Assembly (NCBI GenBank): GCA_001769535.1
Contig: MEOH01000010.1
Location: forward strand, 128,414 to 192,413
Source of the DNA: Bacteroidetes bacterium GWF2_38_335
GTDB lineage: Bacteria > Bacteroidota > Bacteroidia > Bacteroidales > GWF2-38-335
Direction: 5' to 3'
Length of the DNA stretch: 64,000 nucleotides
This document shows, piece by piece, positions 1 to 59,390 of the stretch. How positions within the stretch are numbered: the stretch's first letter is position 1; every line of letters begins with the position of its first letter. The translations under genes and the position numbers were made by a program. The notes beneath the pieces were generated by a model, which was given only the letters and a program-made list of their open reading frames with translations, had not been told where the DNA came from and made no database searches.

Positions 1-3000
1 TCAGAAAGGACATGAGTAATTCGAATTGATTTTCCGAGCACATCTTCCTTATTGTAACCGAATATTTTTTCGGCACCCGGACTAAATTCCAGGATTTTGG
101 GATCATCAGACATGTCGGTCATTATAAAGGAAACATTTTCGGCTGATCTGATAATTGTTTTAAGTTTTTCCTCATTATTTCGCAGTGCTGTTTCGGCTTC
201 GATACGATCAGTAATATCTTTGTTGATTCCACGGTAACCTTCGAGCTGTCCTTTGTCATTGAAAAATGGAATGGCGGTTATTTCAAAGAAAAGTTTTGTG
301 CCATCTTTGGCAATCAGACTGTTTACAGCATCTTTGATGGGAATATTTTTTTTGAAAGCCTTTTGATAAATCACGCGTGCTTCGCCGGCTTCCTCTTCGG
401 GCAATAAGTCAAATATTTCACGTCCAATAATTTCTTTTTCTTTATAGCCGAGTAATTGTCTAATTTTTGGTGAAACTTCAGTAAACTTAGCTTTATCGTC
501 AATTTCCCAAATAATATCGGAAGAAAGTTCAAGAAGGTTTCTAAGTCTTTCTTCTGATTTGATAAGTGCTTTTTCAGCTTTTCTTTTTTCGGTAATATCT
601 TTAAAAAAACCGACAAGCAATTCGTTGCCACCAATATTTATCTTGTTTGATTCAATGTCGCAGATAATTAGCTCCCCATTTTTTTTGATAACCGGAATAT
701 CCTTGGCTAGCGGTTCGCCATTGATTTGTTTCTGAATACACTCCATTACGTATGGAAGTGATTCCTTTGGGTGAAACTTTGAAACATTGAGTGAAAGAAT
801 CTCATCCATGGTGTACCCGGTGATTTCGAGAATTCTGGGATTGGCAAAAACAAATTTGCGACCGTTTAAATCGGTGGCTAAAATTCCGTCGGTTGCATTT
901 TCAAAAATGGCTTTAAAACGGGTTTCGCTTTCACGCAGAGCCTGCTCTGCTTCTACTCTTGCGGAAATATCCTTTACAGCAGTTACCCGAACTTGTTTGC
1001 CCTTGTATTCATACATTTTACCCTGGAATTCAACAGGCACAATAGTATTATTTTTTGTAAAAACAGCAGCCTCATAGGGGTGTTCGTAATTGGCCATCAT
1101 ATTCTTGATTACCAACTCGCTATATTGAGGTGGAATGTACTTTGTTACATCAACCCCGATTAGCTCTTCAGCATTTTTAAATCCCAGAAGTCTGACTGCA
1201 GCGTTGTTTATTTCGATAATTTTCCCCCGTTCGGTAAAAATAAGCGCCTCAAATGCGGCGTCAGATAAGGCTTTGTTTTTCTCTTCAATATTTTTTCTGT
1301 CAGTGAGGTCATGAAATACTCCATAAGATCCGGAGAAATTCCCATTTTCATCAAAGGTGCCAACCACTTTAAGTTCCCCATAAATTTTTTCTCCATTCTT
1401 TTTCAACCATACAGTTTCGTAGTCAACACGCCCTTCTTTGACCAGAGTGCTGTGCTTGAAGTTGGAAAATTTATCTGCAACCTCATCTGGATGAAAAAAA
1501 TCGGAAACATGTCTTCCGATTACTTCTGAGGAGTCATAACCCAAAATTTCACAGAAGGATTTATTGACATAAACAAGTTTCAGGTCTTTATCGGCAATAT
1601 TCATCATATCACTGGCGGTTTCCATAAAGGATCTGAACTTTACCTCACTTTCTTTAAGAGCTTCTTCATTTTCGATTCTGCTGGTTATATTATGGATATA
1701 TCCCTCAAGGTAAATGAGTTCGCCTTTTTCATCATATACCGGCCCGCCGAATTCTTCAACCCAAATATAGTGTCCTTTTTTGTGTTTAATTCTGTAAAAA
1801 AGGTAGAAGGATTTCTTTTCACTGACAGCTTTATTTACAGTATCATATATTTTTTGAAGATCATCAGGATGATAAATATCTGTGAAATTTAGTTTTCCTG
1901 TCATGAATATCTCTTTTGGATATCCTGTGAGGTTTTCCACTTCATCATTCAAAAACAACATTGAATAATTAAGGTCATTATTGCACAGATAAATAACTCC
2001 CGGCATATTTTCGGCGAGCATCCTGAACTTTCTTTCGTTTTCTTCGAGTCGGGCAAAAAACTGCTTTCTTTCAGTGATATCAATAATAAAACCCCTGAAA
2101 CCTATCAGTTTGTCATCTGAGTAAATAGGGGCAGGATATACAAGGACAGGAAATGTTTTTTTATCTTTTTTGCAGGCAATATACTCAACGTTATCAATAT
2201 TACTTCCCTTAATAAGTTTCTTAAAGTTATCATTTACCCTTTTAAGCTCAATTTCCGGAAACAACTGTGTAATAGTCAGTCCTTTTTCATAATCGGGGAT
2301 GGTGTATCCAAAGCATTTCAGACCATTGTCATTGATAAACCGGATATTTCCTTCGAGATCTATTTCGAAAACTGTCTGTGGTAATAAATTGGCGATATCC
2401 TTAAACCGCTTTTCACTTTCTGCAATTTTCTGTTCCTTGACTCTGATTTCAGTTATATCTCTTGACATGCTTGCCAAAAAAACCTCATTATTTACTTCAA
2501 TGATATTTACTACTGACTGTATCCATTTATAGCCCGATTTAGTTTTAATCATATTGGTTGTGAACTCACCAACTTGCGAGCTGTCTTTTTTCTTCAGAAT
2601 TCCATTAATCTTTCTTTTATAATAATCAGCAGTAATTGTAGCTTTATTGAAATCAGGGGTCATATTGTAATGAGTGTCCCACATATAATTACCAAGAACC
2701 TCTTCTCTTGATAATTCAAAAATAATTTCAGAAGCTCTGTTCCATTCGACAATTTTTCCCTGATTATCTATCAAAACCACCGAGTCGAGCGATTGCTGTA
2801 AAAAGCTGCGGTACTTTGTTTCATTATATACCAACTCATCCTTGATCTTTTTTCTTTCAGTGATGTCATTGAAAATAACCTGAATAGCTATCTTTCCTTT
2901 AAATTTTATTGCTGAAGCAGCTACTTCAACATCTCTGTACTCGCCTGAAGAGATAATAAATTTTTCTTCGTAAATATCAGCTTTTCCTTTTTCTGAAAGA

Positions 3001-3755
3001 ATTTTCCCAATTCTTTCTCTGGCAGCAGGGATTGAGTCGGGATGAACAAAGCTTATAACTGGTTTTCCAATCAGGTTATTATAATCCGGGTTACCAAAAA
3101 AGTTTACTGCAGCCTGATTTGCCATTTCAAGAATGCCTTCACAATGAACAACAATTGGAAGAGGTGAAATGTCAAACAGATTTTGATATTTTTCTTCTGA
3201 ATCCTGGACTTCCTGTGTTTTTAAAAGGGTTTCATCAAGAGTAGACCTTAATTCTTCGTTTTGGGAAGCATATTCTTCATTTAGAGAAGTATATTCCTCA
3301 TTTTGTTTTTTTAAAAGTTCTTCGGCTTTTTTAGAAACAGTTACATCTTCAATAATACCAATTCCTTCATTAATTTTTCCGGATTCATTTTTAATGCCTC
3401 TGAAAATGGCAATGACCGGAGTGGTTTTTTTTGCGGTAATTGATTTGTATTCACCATCATAATATCCGGTTCCTGATTTCAATGATCTTTTTATTTCCTC
3501 AATAATCTGTTTATTGTCAAGGCGGTTTAACATATCCAGTCCGACAAGTGCCTCTCGGGATGAACCAATGATTTCAACGAACTTATCATTGCAGTCGGTG
3601 ATTACACCTTCTGAATTATAGTGGAAAAGTCCAATTGGCGAGTGTTCATATATTGTCTGGTAAACAGGATAGACCTGTTTTTTCAACTCCATATTTTCTT
3701 TTTCCAGTCGCTTTATCTTTTCAAGCAGCTCTTTTTCGGACAGGTTTTTATCCAT
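1..3755 (-). CDS. Multi-PAS/PAC sensor protein; about 1251 N-terminal aa are visible and the C-terminal output domain lies beyond the window edge
   Basis: Own translation of the minus strand. ATG at 3755-3753 (MDKNLSEKELLEKIKRLEKENMELKK...) with no in-frame stop down to base 1. At least nine PAS/PAC units end in DIT(E/D)RK-like motifs (FNDITERKK, IIDITERKQ, FHDLTDRKN, FKDITEKRK, NKDITDRIE). It is missing from the ORF track only because it has no stop codon inside the window. Confidence 0.85.
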   Translation of the reverse strand, partial: MDKNLSEKELLEKIKRLEKENMELKKQVYPVYQTIYEHSPIGLFHYNSEGVITDCNDKFVEIIGSSREALVGLDMLNRLDNKQIIEEIKRSLKSGTGYYDGEYKSITAKKTTPVIAIFRGIKNESGKINEGIGIIEDVTVSKKAEELLKKQNEEYTSLNEEYASQNEELRSTLDETLLKTQEVQDSEEKYQNLFDISPLPIVVHCEGILEMANQAAVNFFGNPDYNNLIGKPVISFVHPDSIPAARERIGKILSEKGKADIYEEKFIISSGEYRDVEVAASAIKFKGKIAIQVIFNDITERKKIKDELVYNETKYRSFLQQSLDSVVLIDNQGKIVEWNRASEIIFELSREEVLGNYMWDTHYNMTPDFNKATITADYYKRKINGILKKKDSSQVGEFTTNMIKTKSGYKWIQSVVNIIEVNNEVFLASMSRDITEIRVKEQKIAESEKRFKDIANLLPQTVFEIDLEGNIRFINDNGLKCFGYTIPDYEKGLTITQLFPEIELKRVNDNFKKLIKGSNIDNVEYIACKKDKKTFPVLVYPAPIYSDDKLIGFRGFIIDITERKQFFARLEENERKFRMLAENMPGVIYLCNNDLNYSMLFLNDEVENLTGYPKEIFMTGKLNFTDIYHPDDLQKIYDTVNKAVSEKKSFYLFYRIKHKKGHYIWVEEFGGPVYDEKGELIYLEGYIHNITSRIENEEALKESEVKFRSFMETASDMMNIADKDLKLVYVNKSFCEILGYDSSEVIGRHVSDFFHPDEVADKFSNFKHSTLVKEGRVDYETVWLKKNGEKIYGELKVVGTFDENGNFSGSYGVFHDLTDRKNIEEKNKALSDAAFEALIFTERGKIIEINNAAVRLLGFKNAEELIGVDVTKYIPPQYSELVIKNMMANYEHPYEAAVFTKNNTIVPVEFQGKMYEYKGKQVRVTAVKDISARVEAEQALRESETRFKAIFENATDGILATDLNGRKFVFANPRILEITGYTMDEILSLNVSKFHPKESLPYVMECIQKQINGEPLAKDIPVIKKNGELIICDIESNKINIGGNELLVGFFKDITEKRKAEKALIKSEERLRNLLELSSDIIWEIDDKAKFTEVSPKIRQLLGYKEKEIIGREIFDLLPEEEAGEARVIYQKAFKKNIPIKDAVNSLIAKDGTKLFFEITAIPFFNDKGQLEGYRGINKDITDRIEAETALRNNEEKLKTIIRSAENVSFIMTDMSDDPKILEFSPGAEKIFGYNKEDVLGKSIRITHVLS

Positions 3756-8759: not shown

Positions 8760-11700
8760 CTATCTCAATAATGTAACAAATCCTGCTTTTTCATGGTAGT
8801 TGCCGTTGCCATCAAGATAATTGACCATCCATGTATACACACCTGTTGGTGCCAAATCATTATCTTTAATGCGACCGTTCCATCCATAGGTGGCCGGAGT
8901 TTCCGGATCATAATCGGTTGTGCTGAAAACTGTTTCTCCCCATCTGTCGTAGATTATCATTGAAAAATCTGAACTTTCAATTCCGTTTCCTATAACGAAG
9001 AAAAATCCATTGTCACCGGCACTGTTTGGTTTGAACGCTGTTGGGGCATAGAAAGTAAATTCATCCTGAATGACAACTTTTGCTTCAGCAGTATCCACAC
9101 ATCCATAGATGCTTTGAACTACCAGTATTACATCATAAGTCTGAGGTTCATCATCATAAGGATGGGTAGGGTTGAAGAATTCTGATGAGTCTGAGTCTCC
9201 AAAATCCCAAAGATAAATGTCACCGCCAATGGAAGTGTTTTCAAAATGTACAATTGGGTTGACAATAGTTGTAATATATGGATTTGGTGTAAACTGAGCA
9301 ATGGGATTTGGATAAACGGTTATGTAATCATTTAACACAGCGGTGGCGGTACAACCGTATGCCGAAGTGGCGGTAAGTGTTACATCGTATACGCCGGCAT
9401 TTTCGTATAGATGAGACGGATTTTGTTGGTCTGAGGTATTATAGCTTTCGTAATCACCAAAATCCCATTCGAAAGTCCTGCCATCCAAATCATTTACTTC
9501 AACAAAGTGAACATCAAACGGAGCACAGGCAGCAGTGCTTTCAGCCATAAATGTTACAGGAGGAGGGGGCATCACAATCACGCCCACACTTCCTGATGCA
9601 TTGGGTGAGCCGCAGAGGTCATTGGCTGTGATTGTTATTGTCATGTTATCCAATGGGTATGTTTGATATGGAGGAGCTACAATGTTTCCATCCTGGTCGG
9701 TAACCATATATGGACCACCATTTCCTCCGGTAATTGTAGCAAATACAGTAACAGGTTCGCCCGGACAAATGGTGTCCTTTTCAGGAAGAACTGTCATGCT
9801 AATTGGCGGATGAACATTTACCACAACTTCTTCAGTTATGCTGCGGCAGTTATTCTGATCGACACAGAAAACTTCATATGTATTGGTAACAGTTGGACTG
9901 ACGGTGATTGAAGGAGTATTGTAGAAAGCTCCTGAGGTCATGTCTCTCCATGTGTATGTATAATCGGGTGCTCCGCCTGTTGCTGCGCCTGATAATATTG
10001 CAGATTGCCCAATGCAGATCCAACGGTCGGCAGGAGCGTTTACGTAAACTTTACCTGGATTATTCAGCGTAAGCGTGCCCGATGTGACACAATTATTTGC
10101 ATCGGTGACAAAAACTGTATATGTTCCGGCTGAAAGGGTTGAAACAGTTGAAGTTGTTGCGTTCGTCGGATCAGTCCACTGATAAGTATAAGGAGGTGTT
10201 CCGCCTGATGCAGAAACTGTTCCGGTACCATCGCTGCCATTGGAACATAAGGGGTCAGTTCCGGTAATGACAATGGCAATAGGAGTGGGCTGGTCGACTT
10301 CAAAGTTGGTGTTAATAGCGCAGTTATTGGCGTCAGAAACAGTTACTCCATAATTGATGTCAGCGCAAAGTGTATTTATCTGGCCGGTAGAAGTTACTCC
10401 CAAACCATTTGACCAACTATAGACATAAGGTTCAACTCCGCCGGTTATGGTAACATTAACCCTTCCGTTGCATAATCCGTTGCATGTTACATCGGTAGTG
10501 GTATAATCAACAGATAATGCCTGAGGGACATAAACATCTATTGAGTTTGAAGACATTGAAGTACAACCATTATGGGTAACGGAATTCAATGTAATGGTAT
10601 AGTCACCGAAAGTCATCCAGGTTACTTCGTAAGGACCCTGACCAGAGCCAGACAGGATAGTTGCTCCGTCGAAATTCCAGTCATATACGGCATCGACAGC
10701 ACCTATACCGGTAAAAGTAACATCCATGGTTCCTCCGGCACAGAGAATTTCACCTACTGTGAAGTCTGTTGAGGGCACCTGACTGACAACAATATCCAGT
10801 TCAAAATCGTCAGTGCATACATCATCATCAATGGTAAGGGAAACAGTTTGTGTTCCGGGAGTTGTCCACATCAGTTGATATGGTCCTGCACCGGTTCCGG
10901 AAACAACAGTGGCACCGTCAAAATCCCAGGTATAAACTGCATCCGGACCGGCAGTTCCGGTAAATGAAAGGGTTGTGCTGGCGCCGGCGCATACGCTGTC
11001 TGCCAGGGTAAATGAGGCAATTATTTCAGGGATAACAGTAATATCTACCGAAAGTACCGTGTCGGGGGTACAGGGAACCGTCATGGTTACCCAATAAGTT
11101 TGGGAAGCCGAAGGACTCACCGTTATATTTTGGGTGGTTTCGCCAGTACTCCAGAGCCAGGTAACGAGTGTTGGATCAAGAGCCGGGTTATAGGTTGTTG
11201 ATAAGGTAGCCGATTCATTCCAGCAAAGAGTTTCGTCATTTGAAATTACGGGATTGAGTTCGAAATTATCATGAATCCAGATGGTGTCATTTATGGTAGT
11301 AACAGAACATGGACATCCGTTTTCAAGTCCGAATACAATATACTCGGTTCCTTCGGGAAGGTTATCCACGATGGCTGAATAATATAGGGTGTCGTAAATT
11401 TCGCCCGGTAAAATATAGAAAGAAGTGGGGAAAGGAGTGATGTCAACACCGTTGACAGCAGTTCCGGTAAAATCAAGGACCACTTCAAGGCTATCCATGT
11501 TTGTTGTGTCAATGCGTTGGAAAACCCAATAGTTTTCGCATCCTTCGTACACTTCGTTTTCAGTACCGACTGAGGAAAAGTGGCTCATCATAACATCACC
11601 TCCAGAAGTAAATGAACCAGCTTCGAACATCACATATGATGTAAGAGAACCATCACCTGCATCGGCAATTACAAATTTAATATGGTAAGTTTCGCAAGGT

Positions 11701-13118
11701 ATCAAACCAGCCATTGTGGCGGTGATTGGAATTGTATAGCCACCAGTATTAAACTCTGGTCCGGCGGTCACATAGCCTCCAAAATAAGCTGAGTTATCAG
11801 TACCGTTAACTGTGGAAATAGTAATAGGGATGGTAGTACTTGGAATCACAGCGACATTCACTGCTCCATCGGCATATGGGCCGGCAATTCCCGGACCACT
11901 TACAAAAAATCCGAAAACGTCATTATAACTTGTATGTTCAAAGGTAGGATACTCATCAGAAGCGAAAACAAAATTGAATTCAGTTATTGCTGAAGAAGGC
12001 ACAAAGTCAAATTCGATCATTACCTGATCGTAAATTGAAGTAGAACCACCATTAGCAGATGAAATAGAGGAGATGTTTGCCATAACATCAGCACTTGATG
12101 TATTCCACATAATATTGTCACCAAAAGTATCATCTCCGCAAATATCACCCACAGCGCCACATCCCATTATAATACCAGTTTCAAAGCCGAAAACCGAACC
12201 ATTTGAAAACGCGCCGATAGCAACGTCCGGTCCGTCATAAACAACATTGGAAGCATCAAGACAACCGGTAATAAGAACTTCTTCAATAAGCTCAGAGGGG
12301 GTGTAGGCAGTTGTGCTGACTTCAAGCATGGGAGGGTTTTCCCAAACACAAATGTCAAAAGTACCCTGAAAATCATTATTGGGATCCCAGACACGAATCC
12401 ATACTGTTTGTCCGGCAAGTCCTTCAAGTTCAGAAACATAAACGCTTCCGGGCATTCCCCACGTTTGTTCAGCGCAGGCAATTTCAGTAAGGGTATTGCA
12501 ATCGGGTCCGGAGTAAATAGCTACTCCGCCTTCGGTCATTTCCTGAGCACCAAGGGTAACAGCAAGTCTGCCTGAAGCAGGAACAGTAGCAGTAAACCAT
12601 ACATCACCGCCCATAAAACTCCAGCTACATGATGGTGTAGGAACAGCAGTAGAATTTAAGGCAGATTCTGTGGTAAAAGTATGAAACACACAGGTTGAAG
12701 TTACGGGATCAAGAATTTCGGCAGTGCACGGCTGGTCATTGGAAGGGGGAGGAGGAGGTAATGCAGCACAATCGGCAGAAAATGTGCCGCCGGAGGGGAT
12801 TACACCGCCCTGGCCATCGCTCCAAACTGCATAGAAATTCGGGTTAGTGATTGTGTATTCATTCTCAGACTGCCAACTGCCGCCGGCATTGTATGTAACA
12901 ACAACGACATCGCCGGTATTTGCATTAAATGTGTAAGTAGCATCAGAACCTGTTGCAACGGTAATGTTGGTAAGTACGGCGACCCCGTTAACGGTAATGG
13001 TAATAGAGTTTCCATTCCATCCGTCACCAAAAGTGTCATGCAAATTCACCGTGAAGACACAGGAATAGGAGTTGAGCACTATAAATATTGAGAGTAATGT
13101 AAAAAACCTTTTCATCAC
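8760..13118 (-). CDS. Giant secreted adhesin-like protein: choice-of-anchor-L-like domain, SprB-type and PKD repeats, T9SS type B (gliding-motility) C-terminal domain
   Basis: ORF track, 1452 aa. Signal peptide. N-terminal DGWNG module. Choice-of-anchor-L-like block EFDFVPSS...FVFASDEYPTFEHTSYNDVFGFFVSGPG. SprB-type repeats CNGLCNGRVNVTITGGVEPYVYSW and GGTPPYTYQW. PKD-like FEWDFGD and YLWDFGD. CTD IIYDRWGETVF...WNGR...GVYTWMV...GFVTLLR. Confidence 0.85.
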   Translation of the reverse strand: MMKRFFTLLSIFIVLNSYSCVFTVNLHDTFGDGWNGNSITITVNGVAVLTNITVATGSDATYTFNANTGDVVVVTYNAGGSWQSENEYTITNPNFYAVWSDGQGGVIPSGGTFSADCAALPPPPPSNDQPCTAEILDPVTSTCVFHTFTTESALNSTAVPTPSCSWSFMGGDVWFTATVPASGRLAVTLGAQEMTEGGVAIYSGPDCNTLTEIACAEQTWGMPGSVYVSELEGLAGQTVWIRVWDPNNDFQGTFDICVWENPPMLEVSTTAYTPSELIEEVLITGCLDASNVVYDGPDVAIGAFSNGSVFGFETGIIMGCGAVGDICGDDTFGDNIMWNTSSADVMANISSISSANGGSTSIYDQVMIEFDFVPSSAITEFNFVFASDEYPTFEHTSYNDVFGFFVSGPGIAGPYADGAVNVAVIPSTTIPITISTVNGTDNSAYFGGYVTAGPEFNTGGYTIPITATMAGLIPCETYHIKFVIADAGDGSLTSYVMFEAGSFTSGGDVMMSHFSSVGTENEVYEGCENYWVFQRIDTTNMDSLEVVLDFTGTAVNGVDITPFPTSFYILPGEIYDTLYYSAIVDNLPEGTEYIVFGLENGCPCSVTTINDTIWIHDNFELNPVISNDETLCWNESATLSTTYNPALDPTLVTWLWSTGETTQNITVSPSASQTYWVTMTVPCTPDTVLSVDITVIPEIIASFTLADSVCAGASTTLSFTGTAGPDAVYTWDFDGATVVSGTGAGPYQLMWTTPGTQTVSLTIDDDVCTDDFELDIVVSQVPSTDFTVGEILCAGGTMDVTFTGIGAVDAVYDWNFDGATILSGSGQGPYEVTWMTFGDYTITLNSVTHNGCTSMSSNSIDVYVPQALSVDYTTTDVTCNGLCNGRVNVTITGGVEPYVYSWSNGLGVTSTGQINTLCADINYGVTVSDANNCAINTNFEVDQPTPIAIVITGTDPLCSNGSDGTGTVSASGGTPPYTYQWTDPTNATTSTVSTLSAGTYTVFVTDANNCVTSGTLTLNNPGKVYVNAPADRWICIGQSAILSGAATGGAPDYTYTWRDMTSGAFYNTPSITVSPTVTNTYEVFCVDQNNCRSITEEVVVNVHPPISMTVLPEKDTICPGEPVTVFATITGGNGGPYMVTDQDGNIVAPPYQTYPLDNMTITITANDLCGSPNASGSVGVIVMPPPPVTFMAESTAACAPFDVHFVEVNDLDGRTFEWDFGDYESYNTSDQQNPSHLYENAGVYDVTLTATSAYGCTATAVLNDYITVYPNPIAQFTPNPYITTIVNPIVHFENTSIGGDIYLWDFGDSDSSEFFNPTHPYDDEPQTYDVILVVQSIYGCVDTAEAKVVIQDEFTFYAPTAFKPNSAGDNGFFFVIGNGIESSDFSMIIYDRWGETVFSTTDYDPETPATYGWNGRIKDNDLAPTGVYTWMVNYLDGNGNYHEKAGFVTLLR

Positions 13119-34690: not shown

Positions 34691-37600
34691 TTACCTTAAT
34701 AAAGTGAAGAATCCCGCCTTTTCAAACTCATCTCCACGCATGGTGCGGTATTTCACAATAAATCCGTAAACGCCGGTCATGGCATAATCATTATCTTTTA
34801 CCCTGCCGTCCCATCCGTAAAGTTCAGGGCTTTCGTTGTCGTATTCTGTTGTTTCATAAACCACTTCGCCCCAACGGTCGTAAATAGCCATATAAAAAGA
34901 TGTGGCATCTATTCCGTTCCCTTTGATGTAGAACTTGTTATTATAGGCAACACTAGTAATTTTAATGGCTGTTGGTGCCCAGAATGTATACTCATCAGTT
35001 ACCTGGATAAAGGTGGATGCAGTATCCATGCACATGTGTTCGGTGCTTACTATCACTTCAACCTCGTAAATACCAATATCTTCATAAACATGAACTGGAC
35101 TAATCAATTCAGAAGCTCCCTCATCACCAAAATCCCAGTTGGCAGAATTTATACCAACGGTATTGTTTTCAAAATAAACATCCCCGTCAAAAACTGAAAC
35201 AATATCCCTATCGGGAGAGAAATTGGCAACAGGTTTGGGATACACCTCAATGAAATCGTAAAGAATTTGTGACGAATCACATCCGTAAATATTGGTAATT
35301 TTCAGCGATATATCAAATATTCCTGCTTCAAGAAAAGTATGATGCGGTGATGCCTGATCGGAATAATTATTGATTATATCACCAAAATTCCACCAGAAGA
35401 TGTCGCCTGAATTTTCTTCCATATTATTAAAGGTAACCTCCAGCGGCTGACATCCCGAAAGTTTATCAGCAGAAATGTTAATCTCGGGTTTATCCCAGGT
35501 ATAAATATGGATTGTATCTGAATTAACTGAGTTACAGGCATCGGTTGCAAATAAAATATATTCAAGGGTATCCAGTGGATAAAAATAGAGTGGGGGAGTG
35601 ACCATCAATCCGTCAATTGAATAAATTGTGTAAGGCGGACCACCTCCACCGCTGAGATTTACAAGGACTTGCACTTCTTCGCCCGGACAAATATTTGTTT
35701 TGTTTGCGTATGCCGAAATCTGAACCGGAGGCAAAACATAAACGGTCATAGAATCAGAATAATGGCAACCCGAAGCATCGGTAATTGTAAGCACATAAGT
35801 TGTTGTATCGAGTGGGGTTGCAACCGGATTGGCAATATTCGGGTTACTTAAACCGGTAACCGGAGTCCATGAGTAGGAAACGCCGCCCGAACCATTCAGG
35901 GTTGTAAAGTTTCCCTGGCAGATGGTTGCATCATTGCCTGCACTGGCATGAGAAACAGTAACGACAATTGCATCAGTGAAAGTTGCTCCGGCTTCGGTAA
36001 CGGTAACGGAATAAGTTCCCGGACCGGTAACATAGTAAAGTTGGGCAGTTGAACCGTCATTCCAATGATATGAATCGGCCGGTCCGGCATCAAGCACGAT
36101 ATAATCACCCTCACAAATCAGGGTGTCATTGCCGAGGTCAATAGCAAATTCAGGAATAAAATGTGCAATTATGTAATCGGTTGTTGTAATTTGCAGGGCA
36201 ACGTTTGCCGAGTCCTGATCAGGAGAAACGGTATGGTTTGAAAGTTCCCAGTAATCGAACATAAAGCCCGGTTGGGGAGTTGCTTTTAGCAGAATGTCAA
36301 TATTTCCGTAATAATCACCGGTAAAAGGGTATGAGGTAAGATCAATGGAGTTTACCTTGATATTTCCTGAGCCGGCGGGCTGAACGGTAAAGGTAAGCTC
36401 ATACGGACCGGTAACTTCATAACAATCAATCATTCCGGCAGAAAGATCAACACATCTTGAATTTATAAAGTCGCGCAGTTCCTGAACATTGGCTTCCCAG
36501 GTGGCATAAGTTCCACCCCAGCGTGTAATTTGAGCCGACATTTCGGGGGTAATTAGGTTAATCAGCGAGTCGAGATGGTGAATCATGAATTCGCATGAAA
36601 ATACTGTATTTGAAAGATCAATGTATCTTGAAACGTAGTATTGTCTGAAAGTTTCGTTATTCATAAGTGCATTGAGGATGGGAATATGGCCTTGTCCGCC
36701 GGGATCGGGAAGGTTATCAGCATTGCATGGATCAGCAGCAGGTGATTGATCGGGAATTCCGGTATAATTAATATAATGGCCGAAAGTGGCGTCCATATCC
36801 CACAAAGCATACCGCCATTTTTTCTTATCCCCGGCAGGATTTAGTCCGCGCCACCACGCAGTATTCCAGTTAAGCCAGTCACTGCATACAACGTAAGAAT
36901 TCATAACAACGTAGTCAACCAGACTTTCCCAATTGTAGTATTCGGTAACATAGTCAAAGTTTGCTGCAACCGACATATCATTGGTGAGGATGTAGTTTTT
37001 CAGGTTGTCCCAGTCAGTTTGAGCCTGAGGTCCTCCATATTCCGACCATGTTCCGCCCCAGGTTTTCAGGAATTGAAGGTTGTTTTCGTCCTGGTTGTAA
37101 TAATACTCTGTAAAATCGGCATCATCAACTTTTTCGCGGATTTCATATACGCCCCAGTATTGACCATTGACATAAACGATACAAGGTTCAAAACTGCGCT
37201 CATCCATTTTAAGGTCGCCAACCTGGGACAATGAGTGCACGTATGCGTCCCTGATGTGTGCTCCGTCTTCAAAGGGATAGTTATCGTTTGCAGCAGGTTT
37301 GAAAATTAAACGTTGGAATTTAGTCCGGTCTTTTATTCTGAAAACCTGATCATGAACAGCAGAATTATAGCCGTACTGGTCACGCGAAACATAGTCAAAT
37401 CCCCTCTGATCGTATGCCCATGAGTCATTGCCGTGTTTGTTATAATCACCATCTCCCTCATCGATGAGGGTTTGGGTTGAGCTGAAATATTCGAAAGCAC
37501 CTTCGGGTTCCATCCATCCCCCGTTTAATAAATCGTCGATTTCATCACCACTTACAGAAACCACGGCCATTGTATGTCCTGTGCCAATGAAATAAGTATT

Positions 37601-51194: not shown

Positions 51195-51285
51195 ACCAGG
51201 TCCCAGGGCGGGGGTTATTTATCCCCTATTTCATTTTTACAATTTTGTTTCTATATTTATGGAGTTAAATAAAAAAATACAACCT

Positions 51286-52008
51286 ATGAAAAAACTGATT
51301 CTTTTAATTTCGGTATTCACGTTAATCAACGGATTAAATGCACAGGACGAAAAAACCTGGTACAATCTTGCCATCAAGGGAGGATACGGCAACTGTATTT
51401 TTTTCAATGCCAATTATTCATCCGATGTTGCTGTTGATTACAATTACATGTCGCCAAGCTTTTTTTACGGACTTGATGCAGGAGTGGTATTCCCGGGAGG
51501 ATTCAGTTTGGGATTGGAATATTCAATCCAGAAAATGGGACAGGAATATGATATTGTTCCGGTATTGGGATCAGCCTATACCAAAAGAATAAATGTTTAC
51601 TCCAATGATTTTCTTTTTTTAATAAGGGCATTTGATGAAGGTTTCGGATATTTTGAAATAGGACCGAAATTGTCAATGGTCAAAAAAGTCACAGATAAAA
51701 ATTCAGATAATTCACTCAGTTATGTGAACTCAGGCAATTATGGAGAATATTATAATGATATGTTTATAAGTATTATGTTTGGATTTGGTATTCCGGTTTA
51801 TCACGGAGACCTTTTTGATTTCACCATTGGATTGCGCGGCGGCTATTCAATTTCAAACCTGATGCTTGAAGAAAAAGCCCCCATAAACGATTTAGGTTAT
51901 CCGGTTCTGGCTCCGGACAGCTATGCCACCACCAATCCGTTTTTTGCCCAGCTAACCATGCGCTTTGACTGGCATATCGGGATAAAGAATACCAAGAGTA
52001 GTTGGTAG
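51286..52008 (+). CDS. Outer-membrane beta-barrel protein (porin-family-like)
   Basis: ORF track frame trimmed to Met121 (MKKLILLISVFTLINGLNAQ; alternative start at 51259). Alternating beta pattern. C-terminal aromatic residue (SSW). Confidence 0.65.
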   Translation: MKKLILLISVFTLINGLNAQDEKTWYNLAIKGGYGNCIFFNANYSSDVAVDYNYMSPSFFYGLDAGVVFPGGFSLGLEYSIQKMGQEYDIVPVLGSAYTKRINVYSNDFLFLIRAFDEGFGYFEIGPKLSMVKKVTDKNSDNSLSYVNSGNYGEYYNDMFISIMFGFGIPVYHGDLFDFTIGLRGGYSISNLMLEEKAPINDLGYPVLAPDSYATTNPFFAQLTMRFDWHIGIKNTKSSW

Positions 52009-52013
52009 TGATT

Positions 52014-52784
52014 ATGGGGTACAGATTTGGTTTTCAAGGTCAAGAAGCTGAAAACGAAATTGCAGGCCAAACTGGAAGCCATTCGTTTTTCAAATACAGA
52101 ATCTCTGATAATAGGATTGGGCGGTTTTTTGCGGTTGACCCGTTGATGGCTAAATATCCATGGAATTCTCCTTATGCGTTTTGTGAGAATAAAGTTATTC
52201 AATTTATTGAATTGGAAGGGCTTGAAGCAACTGAAAATAGGGGTAATAGTGAAATTAATATGGAAGTAATAACATATTATCCATTACCCAAAGAATCAAC
52301 AAAAGAGGAAATAGAGGCATTTAAGAATAACCCAATGAATATATGTAATAAGCCGATTGAAGAACCAGAAGGACTCCAAAGGAAAGCTGATGGCTTACCT
52401 GTCATGAATGTTCAACACCGCAAATCTGTTGGTGGATCATCATGGTTTAAACCGCCAAATTATTATTTAGTATGGGATGGAGGAGGCACATCCAATAGTG
52501 ATGAATCAATGGATACTGGACTGGTTCCCTTTGAAGAAGACTGGACTGTATATGCCTATGTAAAACGTTCACATAGAAGAAAATTTGAAAAGCAGTGGGA
52601 AGCTGAAGGACGAAAAGAAAGAATTGTTTATTTAAAGGAGAAAATTACGACTTCTGACGGTACCTTCACTAAGAAAGATGGACAGCAAGTAATTTACGTT
52701 AAGAAAAGAGAAGTTCAAGATTTGAAACCTGATGATAAGATTATTGAAGAGACTCAATTGAGAAATTTAGATAATATTCAATAG
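52014..52784 (+). CDS. Orphan Rhs/YD core-tip fragment fused to an unrecognised C-terminal toxin-like domain
   Basis: ORF track, 260 aa from TTG 52002; ATG at 52014. The first about 70 aa (GYRFGFQGQEAENEIAG...FKYRISDNRIGRFFAVDPLMAKYPWNSPYAFCENKVIQFIELEGLE) match the end of the RHS repeat-associated core. No YD-repeat shell lies upstream. The following about 185 aa contain no motif I recognise. Confidence 0.7.
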   Translation: MGYRFGFQGQEAENEIAGQTGSHSFFKYRISDNRIGRFFAVDPLMAKYPWNSPYAFCENKVIQFIELEGLEATENRGNSEINMEVITYYPLPKESTKEEIEAFKNNPMNICNKPIEEPEGLQRKADGLPVMNVQHRKSVGGSSWFKPPNYYLVWDGGGTSNSDESMDTGLVPFEEDWTVYAYVKRSHRRKFEKQWEAEGRKERIVYLKEKITTSDGTFTKKDGQQVIYVKKREVQDLKPDDKIIEETQLRNLDNIQ

Positions 52785-52785
52785 A

Positions 52786-53457
52786 ATGGGAATGAAAATC
52801 AATATATTGTTAGTGCTTATTACTATTACAATAGTAAGCAATAGTCAGGACACTATAAGGTCTATAACACCCGATATGGATTCTATTGAATATTTTAGAA
52901 ATCCTTTTAAAATAATAAATGCTTGGTTGCCAAATAAAAATCAAGTAATTTTCAATGGAAACGGTTTTCTTGAAAATATTAATAATGAAGAAATACAAAG
53001 AGTATATTATAGAAATGGAGTTATTGAAAATTTATCTTTATCATTTGATTCTACAAAAACAAAATTATTAGAAATAGGAACTTATGTTGATAGCTCAAAA
53101 AGAAATAATACTTGGTTCGGTTTTTATGAAAACGGACAAATTCAATGGAAAGTTCAATATGATAATGGGAAGATTGTTAGTGATTTTACTGAGTTTTATG
53201 AAAATGCACAAATAAAAGCAATTTATTCAGTAGTTGATAATTTAGGTCATTTAAATAAAAAAGGGGCGTATAAAGAATATTATGAATCTGGTAAATTGAG
53301 ATTTGAAGGTCAATATTTTTATGGAAAGTGCAAATGTGAATTAGATTCAACTACTCTTGAATTTCAGATGGCTGTGCCGTTACGACAAGACACAAAATCA
53401 GGTAAATGGATTGAGTATTATGAAAATGGAAATATAAAAAAACATTTCAATATATAA
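52786..53457 (+). CDS. YwqK-family (MORN-variant repeat) immunity/antitoxin-like protein, apparently truncated by a frameshift
   Basis: ORF track, 223 aa. Starts 1 nt after the toxin stop. Signal-like N-terminus. Repeats WFGFYENGQIQWKVQYDNGK, YKEYYESGKLRFEGQY and GKWIEYYENGNIKK. Confidence 0.7.
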   Translation: MGMKINILLVLITITIVSNSQDTIRSITPDMDSIEYFRNPFKIINAWLPNKNQVIFNGNGFLENINNEEIQRVYYRNGVIENLSLSFDSTKTKLLEIGTYVDSSKRNNTWFGFYENGQIQWKVQYDNGKIVSDFTEFYENAQIKAIYSVVDNLGHLNKKGAYKEYYESGKLRFEGQYFYGKCKCELDSTTLEFQMAVPLRQDTKSGKWIEYYENGNIKKHFNI

Positions 53458-53459
53458 AT

Positions 53460-53636
53460 GGTTGTTACTATACATTGGATTTAGACAAGGATGCTAATGG
53501 AAGAGCCTATTTTTCCTGGAGAAACAGAAACGAATGTCCTGAGGGTAAATGGATTGAATATGATGGATCAGGTAATGTAATAATGGTAACTATTTATAAA
53601 AACTGCAAAATTTTTGAGGAAAGAGAAAAGAAGTGA
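53460..53636 (+). pseudogene. Out-of-frame continuation of the YwqK-like gene (or a remnant of a second immunity gene)
   Basis: Own translation of the frame starting at 53460 (shifted relative to the gene that ends at 53457): GCYYTLDLDKDANGRAYFSWRNRNECPEGKWIEYDGSGNVIMVTIYKNCKIFEEREKK*. It continues the repeat pattern. One extra A in the A7 tract at 53436-53442 would fuse the two frames. Confidence 0.5.
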
Positions 53637-53952
53637 TTCTTCCCAGCACCCCCAAGAGTTACAATAGAACCATAAAGCAGCTTCAAGTTTATAACTTGGA
53701 GCGGGAAACAGGGAACGCTAATAATAAAACCAACCAAAAAAGCCTGCTCAAAACCGAGCGGGCTTTAATATAATGTGTTTGGCTGGGATGCGGGGCTGGG
53801 GTGGTTCGGTATGGAGCTGAGGCGGTGGAAATGCTGGCGGGGTGAAACGTGACAACAAATACTTATACATTTTATATAGTCAGCATTATAAAACTAACAA
53901 TCCTATTTAGTAAAATCAAAGATTGAAAATACATTTGAAAGAGGAATCCGTA

Positions 53953-54249
53953 TTAAAACTCATGGTCACTCCTATTGTCAAAAAAGGCCACAATTTCAAT
54001 AGTATCTTTTGAGAATTGATAAATTAATGAAGTCTGGGTAGTAATTACACACCGTCTTAAATGCTTTTCATGTTTTGATGGCGGACAGAGATTTTTTTGA
54101 GTTTTTAGCAGATTCAACAGACTTTCAACCTTTTCTTCAAAATCAGATGCCTCTTTTACTGTCCAATTTTCTAATATAAACGAAATTGTTTCAAGGTAGG
54201 TAAGTTCTGCAATTGGAGACCAGATAATCTGATAAACTATTTTTCTCAT
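53953..54249 (-). CDS. RelE/ParE-family type II toxin
   Basis: ORF track, 98 aa. Size, operon position and the C-terminus IEIVAFFDNRSDHEF fit plasmid-stabilisation RelE/ParE-type toxins of Bacteroidota. Its ATG shares one nt with the upstream stop (TAATG). Confidence 0.65.
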   Translation of the reverse strand: MRKIVYQIIWSPIAELTYLETISFILENWTVKEASDFEEKVESLLNLLKTQKNLCPPSKHEKHLRRCVITTQTSLIYQFSKDTIEIVAFFDNRSDHEF

Positions 54250-54491
54250 TACCTGCCTAATAATTTTGCAACCTTCTTTTTAACTTCAGTATGAGGAATT
54301 CCTTTACCCTCACGAAGTTCTTTTAATCCTTGCTTCACTGTTCTTTTCTCAGACTCTGAAATCATTTCCCACCAGTCAGTTTTCTGAGTTTTTAAAACAG
54401 CAAAATATGCCTGCACTTTCTGAAGAATATCCATATCTTCAGTCTCGACAATAAGTTTATGTAAGTGACTTTTTAATTCTGCTGTACTCAT
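54249..54491 (-). CDS. Cognate antitoxin candidate (small helical addiction-module component)
   Basis: ORF track, 80 aa. Immediately upstream of, and overlapping, the toxin gene. MSTAELKSHLHKLIVETEDMDILQKVQAYF. Confidence 0.6.
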   Translation of the reverse strand: MSTAELKSHLHKLIVETEDMDILQKVQAYFAVLKTQKTDWWEMISESEKRTVKQGLKELREGKGIPHTEVKKKVAKLLGR

Positions 54492-57128: not shown

Positions 57129-57767
57129 ATGGGTGATTATAAAAAAATAGTAGCTATTTTTCTCATCTTGATTTCCTTTCAGGCATCAGCCCAGTTTAAT
57201 TTTGGAATGAGAGGGGGATTGAATGCAAATAAATATATTCTGGAAAATGACCTAACGGTTAGTGAAAATGCCAGATTCGGCTTTGCCGGCGGTATGTTTT
57301 TCAGGGTACAATCGAAGTTTTTCACCTTTCAACCCGAAGTGATGTTTTCACAGAAAAACGGGCAGTATAGCTATGCCGACTTTGCCGACGGAGTAGATAC
57401 TTTATTTAAAAACAACTTTAATTTTGTGGATATACCCTTTCAGTTTGGTGTAACCATAGGAAAAACCGTCCGTTTGAATACCGGTCCGGTTTTCAACCTG
57501 CTGCTAAAAGAAAAGGTGAATTACACGATTTATAACTCGTCTGATCCCGGCGAAGTAATCGATGATGTGTCGAATACAATTAATGTGGCATGGCAGTTTG
57601 GGGTAGGAATAGAGATCAAGGCTTTTGTATTTGATGTGCATTATGAATACAGTCTGAACAAAGTAATGCACACTTTTCAGGTACCGGGCACACCAATCAG
57701 ACTAAACCCCGAAGGCAGGAACAGTTTGTGGCAATTTACGGTAGGGTTTAAGTTTTTGAAGGATTAA
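57129..57767 (+). CDS. Outer-membrane beta-barrel protein (porin-family-like)
   Basis: ORF track frame (TTG 57114) trimmed to the internal Met (MGDYKKIVAIFLILISFQASAQ). C-terminus WQFTVGFKFLKD. The coordinate is derived from the track frame. Confidence 0.65.
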   Translation: MGDYKKIVAIFLILISFQASAQFNFGMRGGLNANKYILENDLTVSENARFGFAGGMFFRVQSKFFTFQPEVMFSQKNGQYSYADFADGVDTLFKNNFNFVDIPFQFGVTIGKTVRLNTGPVFNLLLKEKVNYTIYNSSDPGEVIDDVSNTINVAWQFGVGIEIKAFVFDVHYEYSLNKVMHTFQVPGTPIRLNPEGRNSLWQFTVGFKFLKD

Positions 57768-58727: not shown

Positions 58728-59390
58728 TAGACTTTCGACTTGATGGACTTTAATAATCTTACCTTCTGATTAATTTCATCATTCATTTCCGCCGGAAAAG
58801 TATTTTTGGTTTTTATAACATTTTGGCCGGCGGTTTGTCTATTCTAACCTTTAAACCCCGGCTTGAAAGCCGGGGCTGAATTGAGCCGGCCTTACAGGCC
58901 TGGATTGCGGAAGAATAAGCTTTAACGACTTTATAGACTTTTGACTTGATGGACTTTAATAATCTTACCTTCTGATTAATTTCATCATTCATTTCCGCCG
59001 GAAAAGTATTTTTGGTTTTTATAACATTTTGGCCGGCGGTTTGTCTATTCTAACCTTTAAACCCCGGCTTGAAAGCCGGGGCTGAATTGAGCCGGCCTTA
59101 CAGGCCTGGATTGCGGAAGAATAAGCTTTAACGACTTTATAGACTTTTGACTTGATGGACTTTAATAATCTTACCTTCTGATTAATTTCATCATTCATTT
59201 CCGCCGGAAAAGTATTTTTGGTTTTTATAACATTTTGGCCGGCGGTTTATCTATTCTAACCTTTAAACCCCGGCTTGAAAGCTGGGGCTGAATTGAGCCG
59301 GCCTTACAGGCCTGGATTGCGGAAGAATAAGCTTTAACGACTTTATAGACTTTTGACTTGATGGACTTTCGACTATACAGACTTTCCAAC
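58728..59390. repeat. Three near-identical tandem 206-bp units of the GC-rich hairpin/GACTTT element
   Basis: GGACTTTAAT recurs at 58745, 58951 and 59157 (period 206). I found only two substitutions among the units. No ORF of 60 aa or more on either strand in the track. Confidence 0.92.

Follow-up and report, generated by a model that had tools for sequence, protein, structure and literature searches.

A probable orphan Rhs C-terminal toxin/immunity cassette between two outer-membrane-protein genes of an aquifer Bacteroidota bacterium

The window, by which we mean the whole stretch of DNA that was analysed (64,000 nucleotides), carries between two outer-membrane-protein (OMP) genes a unit of ~1.78 kb (52017-53796) that we consider likely to be a standalone orphan Rhs C-terminal toxin/immunity cassette, brought there by horizontal transfer or recombination (Table 1). 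In the arrangement that we propose, the last 70 residues of an Rhs core would be joined to a unique 185-aa payload and followed by a periplasm-targeted MORN-repeat immunity protein. The tip-coding DNA would form the left homology arm and a ~125-nt element the right one for the swapping of payloads with other slots, and slippage between A7 and A8 would flip the immunity gene between an intact and a truncated form.

Table 1. Features of the cassette and its left-hand neighbour, in window coordinates.
Feature	Position	Strand	Remarks
Upstream small beta-barrel OMP gene, 249 aa	51259..52008	+	Native, outside the cassette; stop codon supplied by the junction
Left junction	52006..52016	+	~10 nt (TAGTGATTATG) from the last conserved OMP codon to the first base common to Rhs tips
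Start codon and Rhs-associated core tip (MGYRFGFQGQE...IELEGLE)	52014..52226	+	TIGR03696 match, homologues, alignment A2
38-nt identical stretch, window tip versus locus X tip	52083..52120	+	Inferred crossover zone of L087
Variable C-terminal domain, putative toxin, 185 aa plus stop	52227..52784	+	Singleton; no family, PDB or homologue match
Immunity gene, MORN_2/YwqK type, N-terminal Sec signal peptide	52786..53636	+	PF07661; 283 aa when intact
Immunity gene pieces in the window	52786..53457 (223 aa), 53475..53636 (53 aa)	+	Frameshift
Poly-A tract, A7 in the window versus A8 in other assemblies	53436..53442	+	Decides whether the immunity ORF is truncated or full-length
Conserved non-coding 3' element, ~125 nt	53672..53796	+	Right-hand homology arm; ~91% identity to locus X
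Bidirectional terminator-like hairpin inside the 3' element	about 53742-53770	both directions	Terminator scan match 53746-53759

An earlier note on this DNA had proposed an orphan Rhs core tip with a variable C-terminal domain behind it, and had let the Rhs assignment hang on homology to an RHS core profile. Such homology is present: residues 8-74 of the ORF align to positions 16-76 of the 76 in TIGR03696 (Rhs_assc_core; E 3.2e-6, 27.6 bits), a score below the curated cut-off of 32.5 bits because the first 15 profile positions have been lost by truncation. Full-length relatives that possess positions 1-15 score 43.8 and 38.7 bits, above the cut-off. The homologous segment begins at G-Y (52017) and stops at LEGLE (52226), spanning 70 aa, and lacks both the preceding DYYPFG segment and the entire YD-repeat shell. 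It is common to more than 3000 database proteins at 50-78% identity; a closer tip, at 90%, belongs to a 312-aa orphan of the same MAG and was masked in the database listing by a truncated cluster representative.

The end of a full-length Rhs core bears conserved aspartates and a cleavage motif. When the window tip was aligned with the tips of ORFs that have 2200-3400 upstream codons (alignment A2), all 35 invariant residues proved to be kept, the conserved Asp residues and LEGLE among them. LEGLE is a putative cleavage motif, and autoproteolytic release of the C-terminal domain is only predicted. The tips of these relatives end RHS-repeat proteins of 2200-3400 aa with PF05593 and DUF6443. Across species-representative genomes, a set to which the window's MAG does not belong, 23 of 77 tip loci lie at the end of ORFs with 1000 or more codons upstream and so count as full-length, while most of the others have fewer than 250 upstream codons, some being interrupted by contig ends; orphan tips are common in this set.

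The ORF as called (52002..52784, + strand) comprises 260 aa counted from a TTG. A TAG at 51999-52001 shuts the tip frame five codons before an ATG at 52014, which lies 5 nt past the OMP stop (52006-52008) and yields a 256-aa product. Because a G at 52003 abolishes the TTG in the sister contig L009, ATG 52014 is the sole start common to the contigs, and this ATG at the homology boundary is kept in 15/15 of them. A fusion of OMP and toxin through frameshifting or read-through was ruled out: the tip frame is closed by the TAG and the OMP frame by tandem stops (TAG TGA), and a slippery heptamer is absent.

The 185-aa tail behind the tip is real coding sequence. Its in-frame codon score of 0.31 compares with 0.28-0.48 in native genes, the other five frames over the region are full of stops, and a frame open for 256 codons in DNA of 35% GC was preserved in 0 of 20,000 shuffles. 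The earlier note had recognised no motif in the tail, and our searches agree: nothing matched in Pfam, NCBIfam, PHROG, PADLOC or PDB sequences, no catalytic motif is recognisable, and no relative was detected among about 15 billion proteins. Exhaustive searches of 5.8 billion and 1.84 billion proteins returned the protein itself and, as the only non-self match, the NACHT-WD40 protein P0121 (E 1.6e-7). This match was rejected as repeat-driven score inflation, one 36-aa stretch of the tail matching each of ten WD40 repeats. Another candidate relative, P0002, with an apparent coverage of 59%, was discarded as a BLAST run-on beyond LEGLE.

As the tail has no homologues, no alignment could be built, and a single-sequence AF2 model (pLDDT 32.8) was too poor for a fold search. 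The tail is very hydrophilic (GRAVY -1.03), and neither a hydrophobic segment, a signal peptide nor a secretion domain was found in the toxin ORF. The name toxin is given to the payload for its position behind the core tip, so that the earlier suggestion of a new toxin family overstated what a singleton of unpredicted fold can support.

The earlier note had also seen no YD-repeat shell, and indeed tblastn with 13 Rhs shells against the 64-kb window gave one weak match only, in an unrelated PKD/SprB gene (10068-10517). A full-length rhs gene was found neither in the window nor in the 10 kb around each of the two slots described below. Since shell, N-terminal delivery domain and signal peptide are all missing, the product of ATG 52014 would be neither exported nor encapsulated, and it is improbable that the toxin is delivered or deployed from this locus. 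The cassette lies on the OMP strand and the first terminator-like signal comes at 53746, which makes it probable that the immunity gene is expressed by read-through transcription. Scans for sigma-70 promoters and for the Bacteroidetes -7 motif TAnnTTTG showed no enrichment over shuffles and are thus uninformative on a promoter of the cassette's own.

Searches of the window with six cassette-linked tyrosine recombinases (tblastn) found nothing at E<1e-5, and no integrase Pfam match occurred among the called neighbour genes. In related Flavobacteriia, a tyrosine recombinase flanked by inverted tips was observed; Mesonia oceanica ISS653 and Flavobacterium isolates carry a recombinase-containing segment with 259-nt inverted tips. 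A literature search found no description of a recombinase-driven Rhs toxin switch, which does not prove such a switch to be undescribed.

Composition and synteny set the cassette apart from its surroundings. The note's impression, gained by eye, of an AT-rich cassette is matched by the counts: the toxin part has 35% GC (GC3 24%) and the immunity gene 26% (GC3 16%), compared with 38% for the whole window, a foreign composition. In L007 and L008, only 7-10 nt separate the orthologue of the small OMP gene (61-65% identity) from that of 57129-57767, which comes next. The normal arrangement is therefore one of adjacent OMP genes, and the cassette sits between them at the exact 3' end of the small OMP gene, as the note had placed it.

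The left junction was mapped by comparison with L007 and L008 at the 3' end of the OMP gene and with the second slot, L095, in which the similarity sets in at 52017. Conservation of the OMP gene reaches as far as the codon TGG (52003-05), and the first base common to other Rhs tips is 52017; the OMP orthologues end in ...W(D/E) and the window copy in ...KSSW. The small OMP itself has no match in Pfam. It is modelled by AF2 as an all-beta barrel at medium confidence (pLDDT 63.5), with Ail, the OmpA transmembrane domain, OprG and OmpX as the best Foldseek matches, and a terminator-like hairpin (51210-51226) was detected upstream of its gene. A metagenome scan gave zero matches to the OMP 3' end, yet JGI contigs carry it, and the scanned collection is therefore incomplete. 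No direct or inverted repeats that would mark a transposon or att sites were found around the cassette, and class-2 junctions in other genomes have no upstream nucleotide motif in common.

The same MAG contains a second solitary slot (locus X, on L095), whose payload and immunity gene are unrelated to those of the window. Only the tip (176/210 nt, 84%; 63 of 70 aa, the 312-aa orphan mentioned above) and the 3' element (91%), of which locus X has a second, partial copy, are held in common. Each slot has a ParE toxin beside it, and these two are not related. The flank of locus X and the payload of the window are joined on one metagenome scaffold of 1.4 kb, L087, whose sequence is that of locus X as far as the counterpart of 52120 and that of the window from 52083 on. 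Relative to the window it has 10 mismatches, all in 52023-52082 and nine of them synonymous, followed by none over 1207 nt.

We regard L087 as a putative recombinant; an assembly chimera across the 38-nt identical stretch is also conceivable. A payload that is 100% identical in two flanking contexts would imply very recent movement, in whichever direction it may have gone. The earlier idea that the cassette is retained for recombination with a full-length rhs gene gains from the second slot, with its shared tip and 3' element, and from the putative recombinant, and loses in that neither the window nor the 10 kb around the slots holds such a partner. The sole exchange seen is between orphan slots, and exchange with full-length rhs is presumed.

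The gene that follows the toxin ORF after a 1-nt spacer was rightly credited with immunity-type repeats, although its frameshift had been overlooked: the 53-aa ORF at 53475 is the tail of a 283-aa product. Both forms exceed the PF07661 (MORN_2) gathering cut-off of 29.6 bits, the 223-aa form with 43.7 bits (1.4e-11) and the 283-aa form with 51.9 bits (2.9e-14), and in L002 and L003, too, the gene behind the tip is of the MORN_2 kind. The protein would putatively neutralise the adjacent toxin. Its N-terminus is hydrophobic (Kyte-Doolittle maximum 2.36), and from the signal peptide we infer a periplasmic target for the payload.

The tract is A7 in the window, L001, L090, L091 and L092 and A8 in L009/L089, L088 and L093, so that the alleles are present in several independent assemblies, and the intact gene is found in L009, L088 and L093. 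Compared with the window, L088, L090, L091 and L092 have no mismatch in ~2.5 kb and L093 has none in 1,991 aligned bases, and L009/L089 differ at a single position (52003) within the compared stretch. The truncated allele is the commoner (223-aa form on 8 contigs, 283-aa form on 3), which argues against strong current selection on immunity function.

This imbalance bears directly on the main competing explanation, which we hold to be possible though clearly less probable: that the locus is an acquired defence, analogous to the orphan-immunity AID/rAID islands of gut Bacteroidales, in which the immunity gene would be selected against the Rhs toxins of neighbours and the tip-toxin ORF would be inert baggage that came along with the captured pair. 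Protective orphan immunity islands whose GC is skewed are on record (Ross et al., bioRxiv 10.1101/471110), the payload here is AT-rich as rAID genes are, the genome has at least two such slots, and the immunity gene, which encodes a signal peptide, is positioned for read-through transcription. Yet that gene is frameshifted in most assemblies, and the toxin ORF has stayed intact, unlike neutral baggage, the copies being too recent for a selection test. Moreover, neither a XerD-like recombinase nor an array was found in the window, and with no matching toxin in the databases, no attacker with this payload has been sampled.

The same frameshift could be read as decay, the locus being the dead remnant of an old rhs rearrangement and its C-terminal 'domain' no functional toxin. 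A singleton tail that is extremely hydrophilic and without predicted fold, and the absence nearby of shell, recombinase and partner gene, would suit such a relic. We nevertheless judge it unlikely, as the frame is open in AT-rich DNA with a native-like codon score, every invariant tip residue is retained, an intact immunity allele persists in three assemblies, and the payload has apparently moved very recently.

The locus could also encode an autonomous small toxin, a 256-aa protein made from ATG 52014 in coupling with the OMP gene and acting in an addiction-type module or after release by lysis or vesicles; to this we give very little credence. In Rhs/Tc structures the core tip is part of a fold that normally lies inside the Rhs shell, and here a fragment of it would head a protein that has neither signal peptide nor secretion domain. 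A periplasmic immunity protein and a cytoplasmic toxin are moreover mismatched as an addiction pair, and most assemblies tolerate loss of the immunity C-terminus. The intact ORF and the invariant ATG at the homology boundary speak in its favour, as do the MGCLKL leader conserved on some orphans elsewhere and the thousands of database proteins of 200-450 aa that begin near the tip motif, but many of these short proteins are gene calls begun at the conserved Met of YYPFGM.

A bolder form of the cassette reading is improbable in our estimation. In it, the 1.78-kb unit would be more than an rhs leftover: it would be a mobile element in its own right, with defined ends, that moves among dedicated slots between housekeeping genes. 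The YRFGFQGQE-coding motif at its left end would be the crossover site of a cassette exchange of the kind that a tyrosine recombinase would run in related Flavobacteriia, and the payload would have a new toxin fold, act in the periplasm and be checked by a phase-variable MORN-repeat immunity protein.

We thus prefer the plainer reading of a standalone orphan cassette acquired by transfer or recombination. Such cassettes are thought to be a reservoir that renews contact-dependent weapons, and examples of natural exchange are few. This aquifer Bacteroidota species offers two solitary slots with arms in common and different payloads, a candidate recombinant whose crossover maps to 38 nt within tip-coding DNA, and an immunity gene that would toggle through poly-A slippage across several metagenomes. 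With the payload, the list of putative toxins that belong to no class grows by one, and the signal peptide of its immunity partner suggests that the target is periplasmic. The understanding of Rhs systems is unchanged by this finding.

Orphan rhs-CT/rhsI modules of Enterobacteria, a model of C-terminal displacement and the activation of an orphan Rhs toxin in Salmonella have reportedly been described. The enterobacterial modules are arrayed immediately behind a full-length rhs gene, and core DNA is their homology arm for recombination. The window cassette resembles them in its 5'-truncated core fragment, variable toxin domain, co-oriented immunity gene directly downstream and foreign composition, and in conserved core DNA that may serve as a homology arm. 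It differs in standing alone between two OMP genes, as 52 kb of upstream and 10 kb of downstream sequence contain no rhs, in keeping 70 core residues only, in its cleavage motif (LEGLE versus DPxGL), and in that the only exchange seen for it involves a second slot that is likewise solitary.

For polymorphic toxin systems, toxin-immunity cassettes that stand alone have been described (Zhang, de Souza, Anantharaman, Iyer, Aravind 2012, PMC3482391). The window cassette belongs to their RHS-linked class, although its payload matches no catalogued toxin domain in Pfam or NCBIfam and it has a defined non-coding right arm common to slots. With YwqK-type MORN_2 immunity proteins the window gene shares a score above the PF07661 threshold and repeats that also follow related tips elsewhere; unlike them, it has a Sec signal peptide, a phase-variable poly-A tract and a toxin partner unrelated to the YwqJ deaminase.

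The rAID-1 clusters of Bacteroidales are recombinase-associated acquired interbacterial defence clusters (Ross et al. 2019, bioRxiv 10.1101/471110), one mark of which is at least two co-directional downstream genes of at most 41% GC, immunity genes included. The window cassette, at 35% and 26% with a MORN_2 gene, shows this mark. Like them, it is a low-GC island with an orphan immunity gene in a Bacteroidota chromosome and is plausibly protective; unlike them, it has no XerD-like recombinase, multi-gene array or repeated intergenic motif, keeps a complete toxin domain and resides in an environmental (aquifer) bacterium. The kind of element is thus already known, and the window copy mainly shows how such cassettes move and decay.

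The earlier note had read the first 70 or so residues of the toxin ORF as the end of the Rhs-associated core (the tip), and this is borne out by similarity to NCBIfam TIGR03696 (residues 8-74 against profile positions 16-76 of 76; E 3.2e-6, 27.6 bits) and by the retention of 35 of 35 invariant residues in an alignment with tips that close long ORFs. The score falls under the model cut-off of 32.5 bits because the window tip is truncated: full-length relatives with the first 15 profile positions (the DYYPFG segment) reach 43.8 and 38.7 bits. More than 3000 proteins have this segment in common at 50-78% identity, and in every case the similarity stops at LEGLE. In a survey of 77 loci from species-representative genomes, 23 have the tip at the end of an ORF that runs for 1000 codons or more ahead of it (commonly 2200-3400), and RHS repeats and DUF6443 were present in both long ORFs examined (n = 2). 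Most of the remaining tips have fewer than 250 upstream codons and are orphans; some are clipped by contig ends. No upstream YD-repeat shell was found across the 64-kb window, in agreement with the earlier note.

The ORF itself was found where the earlier note had placed it. Its frame is shut immediately upstream by a TAG at 51999-52001, the TTG overlaps the stop codon of the OMP gene before it (TAG, 52006-08), and the ATG lies 5 nt past that stop. As position 52003 is a G in one sister contig, which removes the TTG, the ATG is the sole start shared by all copies.

Coordinates of the cassette, the second slot and neighboring features
Feature	Position	Strand	Remarks
Toxin ORF	52002..52784	+	260 aa from TTG; 256 aa from ATG 52014
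Poly-A tract	53436-53442	+	A7 in window vs A8 elsewhere; one-base split of 283-aa immunity gene
Locus X orphan slot	L095:6632-8436		GCA_001769705.1 MEPF01000017.1; same MAG, tip/toxin/immunity
Inverted repeat, 23 nt	52765-52787 / 52880-52902		20/23 complementary
ParE-family pair	53953-54491	minus	PF05016, 24.1 bits; upstream 80-aa partner
Tandem 206-nt units (x3)	58856-59313		Rfam Acido-Lenti-1 RNA motif in each
CHU_C proteins	8760-13118, 34691-38326 (minus strand)		SprB + PKD repeats in one, CotH kinase domain in the other

The C-terminal 185 residues (the payload), described earlier as unrecognised, indeed had zero matches in Pfam, NCBIfam, PHROGs, PADLOC and PDB sequences, and among 5.8 billion proteins a word-indexed search returned only the protein that carries it. 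One further match, a WD40-repeat protein, came from an exhaustive HMMER search of 1.84 billion representatives and was rejected as an artefact, with ten repeats each weakly matching the same 36-aa stretch. The payload resembles no toxin found in the 77 tip loci and is, by these sequence comparisons, a singleton. It is a genuine coding sequence, since its codon score falls within the native-gene range, the other five frames are crowded with stops and zero shuffles of its DNA leave 185 codons open. The product is strongly hydrophilic, with no hydrophobic segments, and AF2 run without an alignment gave a pLDDT of 32.8, too low for fold comparison; as there is neither a family match nor a usable fold model, we infer the toxin label from position.

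The gene that starts one base past the toxin stop encodes MORN_2 repeats over the Pfam threshold, in line with the immunity-type repeats proposed for it, and its product has a clear N-terminus of Sec type; the same repeat family is also found downstream of related tips in other genomes (L002, L003). Sister-contig comparison showed that a 223-aa ORF and a 53-aa ORF (53475) are a single gene. The A7 and A8 alleles were each found in several independent assemblies, and the truncated form is commoner (8 contigs vs 3 with the intact form). Relative to the window, four contigs of this locus (L088, L090-L092) have 0 mismatches over ~2.5 kb and another (L093) has 0 over 1,991 aligned bases, while L009/L089 differ in this stretch by a single SNP, at 52003. 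The A7/A8 difference is a real slippage polymorphism that toggles between 223 aa and 283 aa, and not a one-off error. That truncation is tolerated suggests that the toxin fails to reach the periplasm of the cell that makes it, which agrees with the lack of an export signal of any sort in the toxin ORF. The inverted repeat encloses the toxin stop codon, the start codon of the immunity gene and the stretch that codes for the signal peptide; it may form an RNA hairpin or, in DNA this AT-rich, have arisen by chance.

The source organism is an aquifer MAG ('Bacteroidetes bacterium GWF2_38_335'). The OMP gene upstream of the cassette had no Pfam match, and its product was modelled as a small beta-barrel like Ail, OmpA, OprG and OmpX. 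In two other genomes the orthologue of the window OMP_b-brl_2 gene (57129) comes next, within 7-10 nt downstream of its orthologues; in this species the two OMP genes are 5.1 kb apart, and the interval contains the cassette, a ParE toxin-antitoxin pair on the opposite strand and an OmpA/PD40/TPR gene. The ParE pair, part of the 5.1 kb missing in relatives, is convergent with the cassette and shares a bidirectional terminator with it. The OMP protein ends in W(D/E)-stop in the orthologues vs W-stop in the window, and 52017 is the first base common to other tips, so that the left junction is ~10 nt wide. The cassette is more AT-rich than its surroundings, as the earlier note had judged by eye: GC content is 35% in the toxin part (GC3 24%) and 26% in the immunity gene (GC3 16%), vs 38% in the window, and the payload DNA is compositionally foreign. 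Terminator-like hairpins occur before the OMP gene and next only at about 53746-53770; with none between the OMP gene start and ~53746, read-through transcription of the cassette would be possible. Further downstream, the three Acido-Lenti-1 units score 42.3, 42.3 and 37.1 bits (gathering score 37), and the sister strain (L009) is one unit short (indel 58737-58942).

One member of the toxin ORF's protein cluster is a variant of 275 aa, encoded on a Rifle scaffold of 1.4 kb (L087). Compared with window 52017-53289, this scaffold has ten mismatches, every one inside 52023-52082 and 9/10 synonymous, and 0 across the 1207 nt beyond 52082. Its upstream sequence is unrelated to the window and leads to locus X, a second slot of the same MAG (tags A2W91_00895-00925) in a different housekeeping neighbourhood. 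In locus X, also a solitary orphan, the tip comes with a 312-aa ORF and a 252-aa partner, both unrelated; the slot is AT-rich and adjoins a ParE toxin-antitoxin pair unrelated to that of the window. The only DNA common to the two slots is the tip (176/210 nt, from 52017) and a ~125-nt non-coding element 3' of the immunity gene (91% identity), which contains the terminator hairpin. L087 follows the locus X sequence exactly as far as the counterpart of 52120, and from 52083 on it equals the window, so that the crossover lies inside a 38-nt stretch identical in both tips. If real, this candidate recombinant is as expected from payload exchange via homologous recombination through the tip; L087 is one short metagenome scaffold and could be an assembly chimera. 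Sixteen contigs carry locus X with its own payload, and 15 carry the window locus.

Elsewhere in the Bacteroidota, these tips are often linked to tyrosine recombinases. Among loci of at least 8 kb, to which this survey was restricted (n = 65), 22 have a recombinase match within 5 kb of the tip, and nine have a convergent tip pair around a tyrosine recombinase gene (L013, L027, L046, L053, L065, L073, L075, L078, L079), the enclosed recombinases being 57-61% identical to that of L002. In Mesonia oceanica (L013:9947-16016), the arms are 259 nt long and 96% complementary; one is the tip of the full-length Rhs, the other an orphan tip in inverted orientation, and they enclose toxin-immunity-recombinase-immunity-toxin. 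Inversion would give the Rhs gene a different toxin end, so that the layout looks like an inversion switch. A literature search found no account of such a layout of inverted tips flanking a recombinase. In one Flavobacteriales MAG, two orphan cassettes (L005:10001 and L005:18270; also L018) near pairs of XerC/D-like recombinase genes open with a common leader (MGCLKLEYQ.../MGCLKLVHN...) that replaces the YYPFG segment, which hints that some orphans possess their own conserved N-terminus.

The element is an orphan Rhs C-terminal toxin/immunity cassette, its toxin assigned by position. No full-length rhs partner was found in the 64-kb window or within 10 kb of either slot, and the window showed no genes for type VI secretion or Rhs delivery. 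The two large CHU_C-domain proteins in the window indicate that the organism has type IX secretion cargo. The toxin is probably not deliverable from this locus. An autonomous toxin and a dead relic are the less likely readings. Acquired defence (cf. bioRxiv 10.1101/471110) is a live alternative that overlaps partly with the main reading; it is weakened in that the immunity gene is often truncated and the window lacks a tyrosine recombinase of the tip-linked kind. Most likely, the cassette would serve as exchangeable stock, as an immunity source, or as both, and orphan toxin/immunity cassettes are an element type described for polymorphic toxin systems (PMC3482391).
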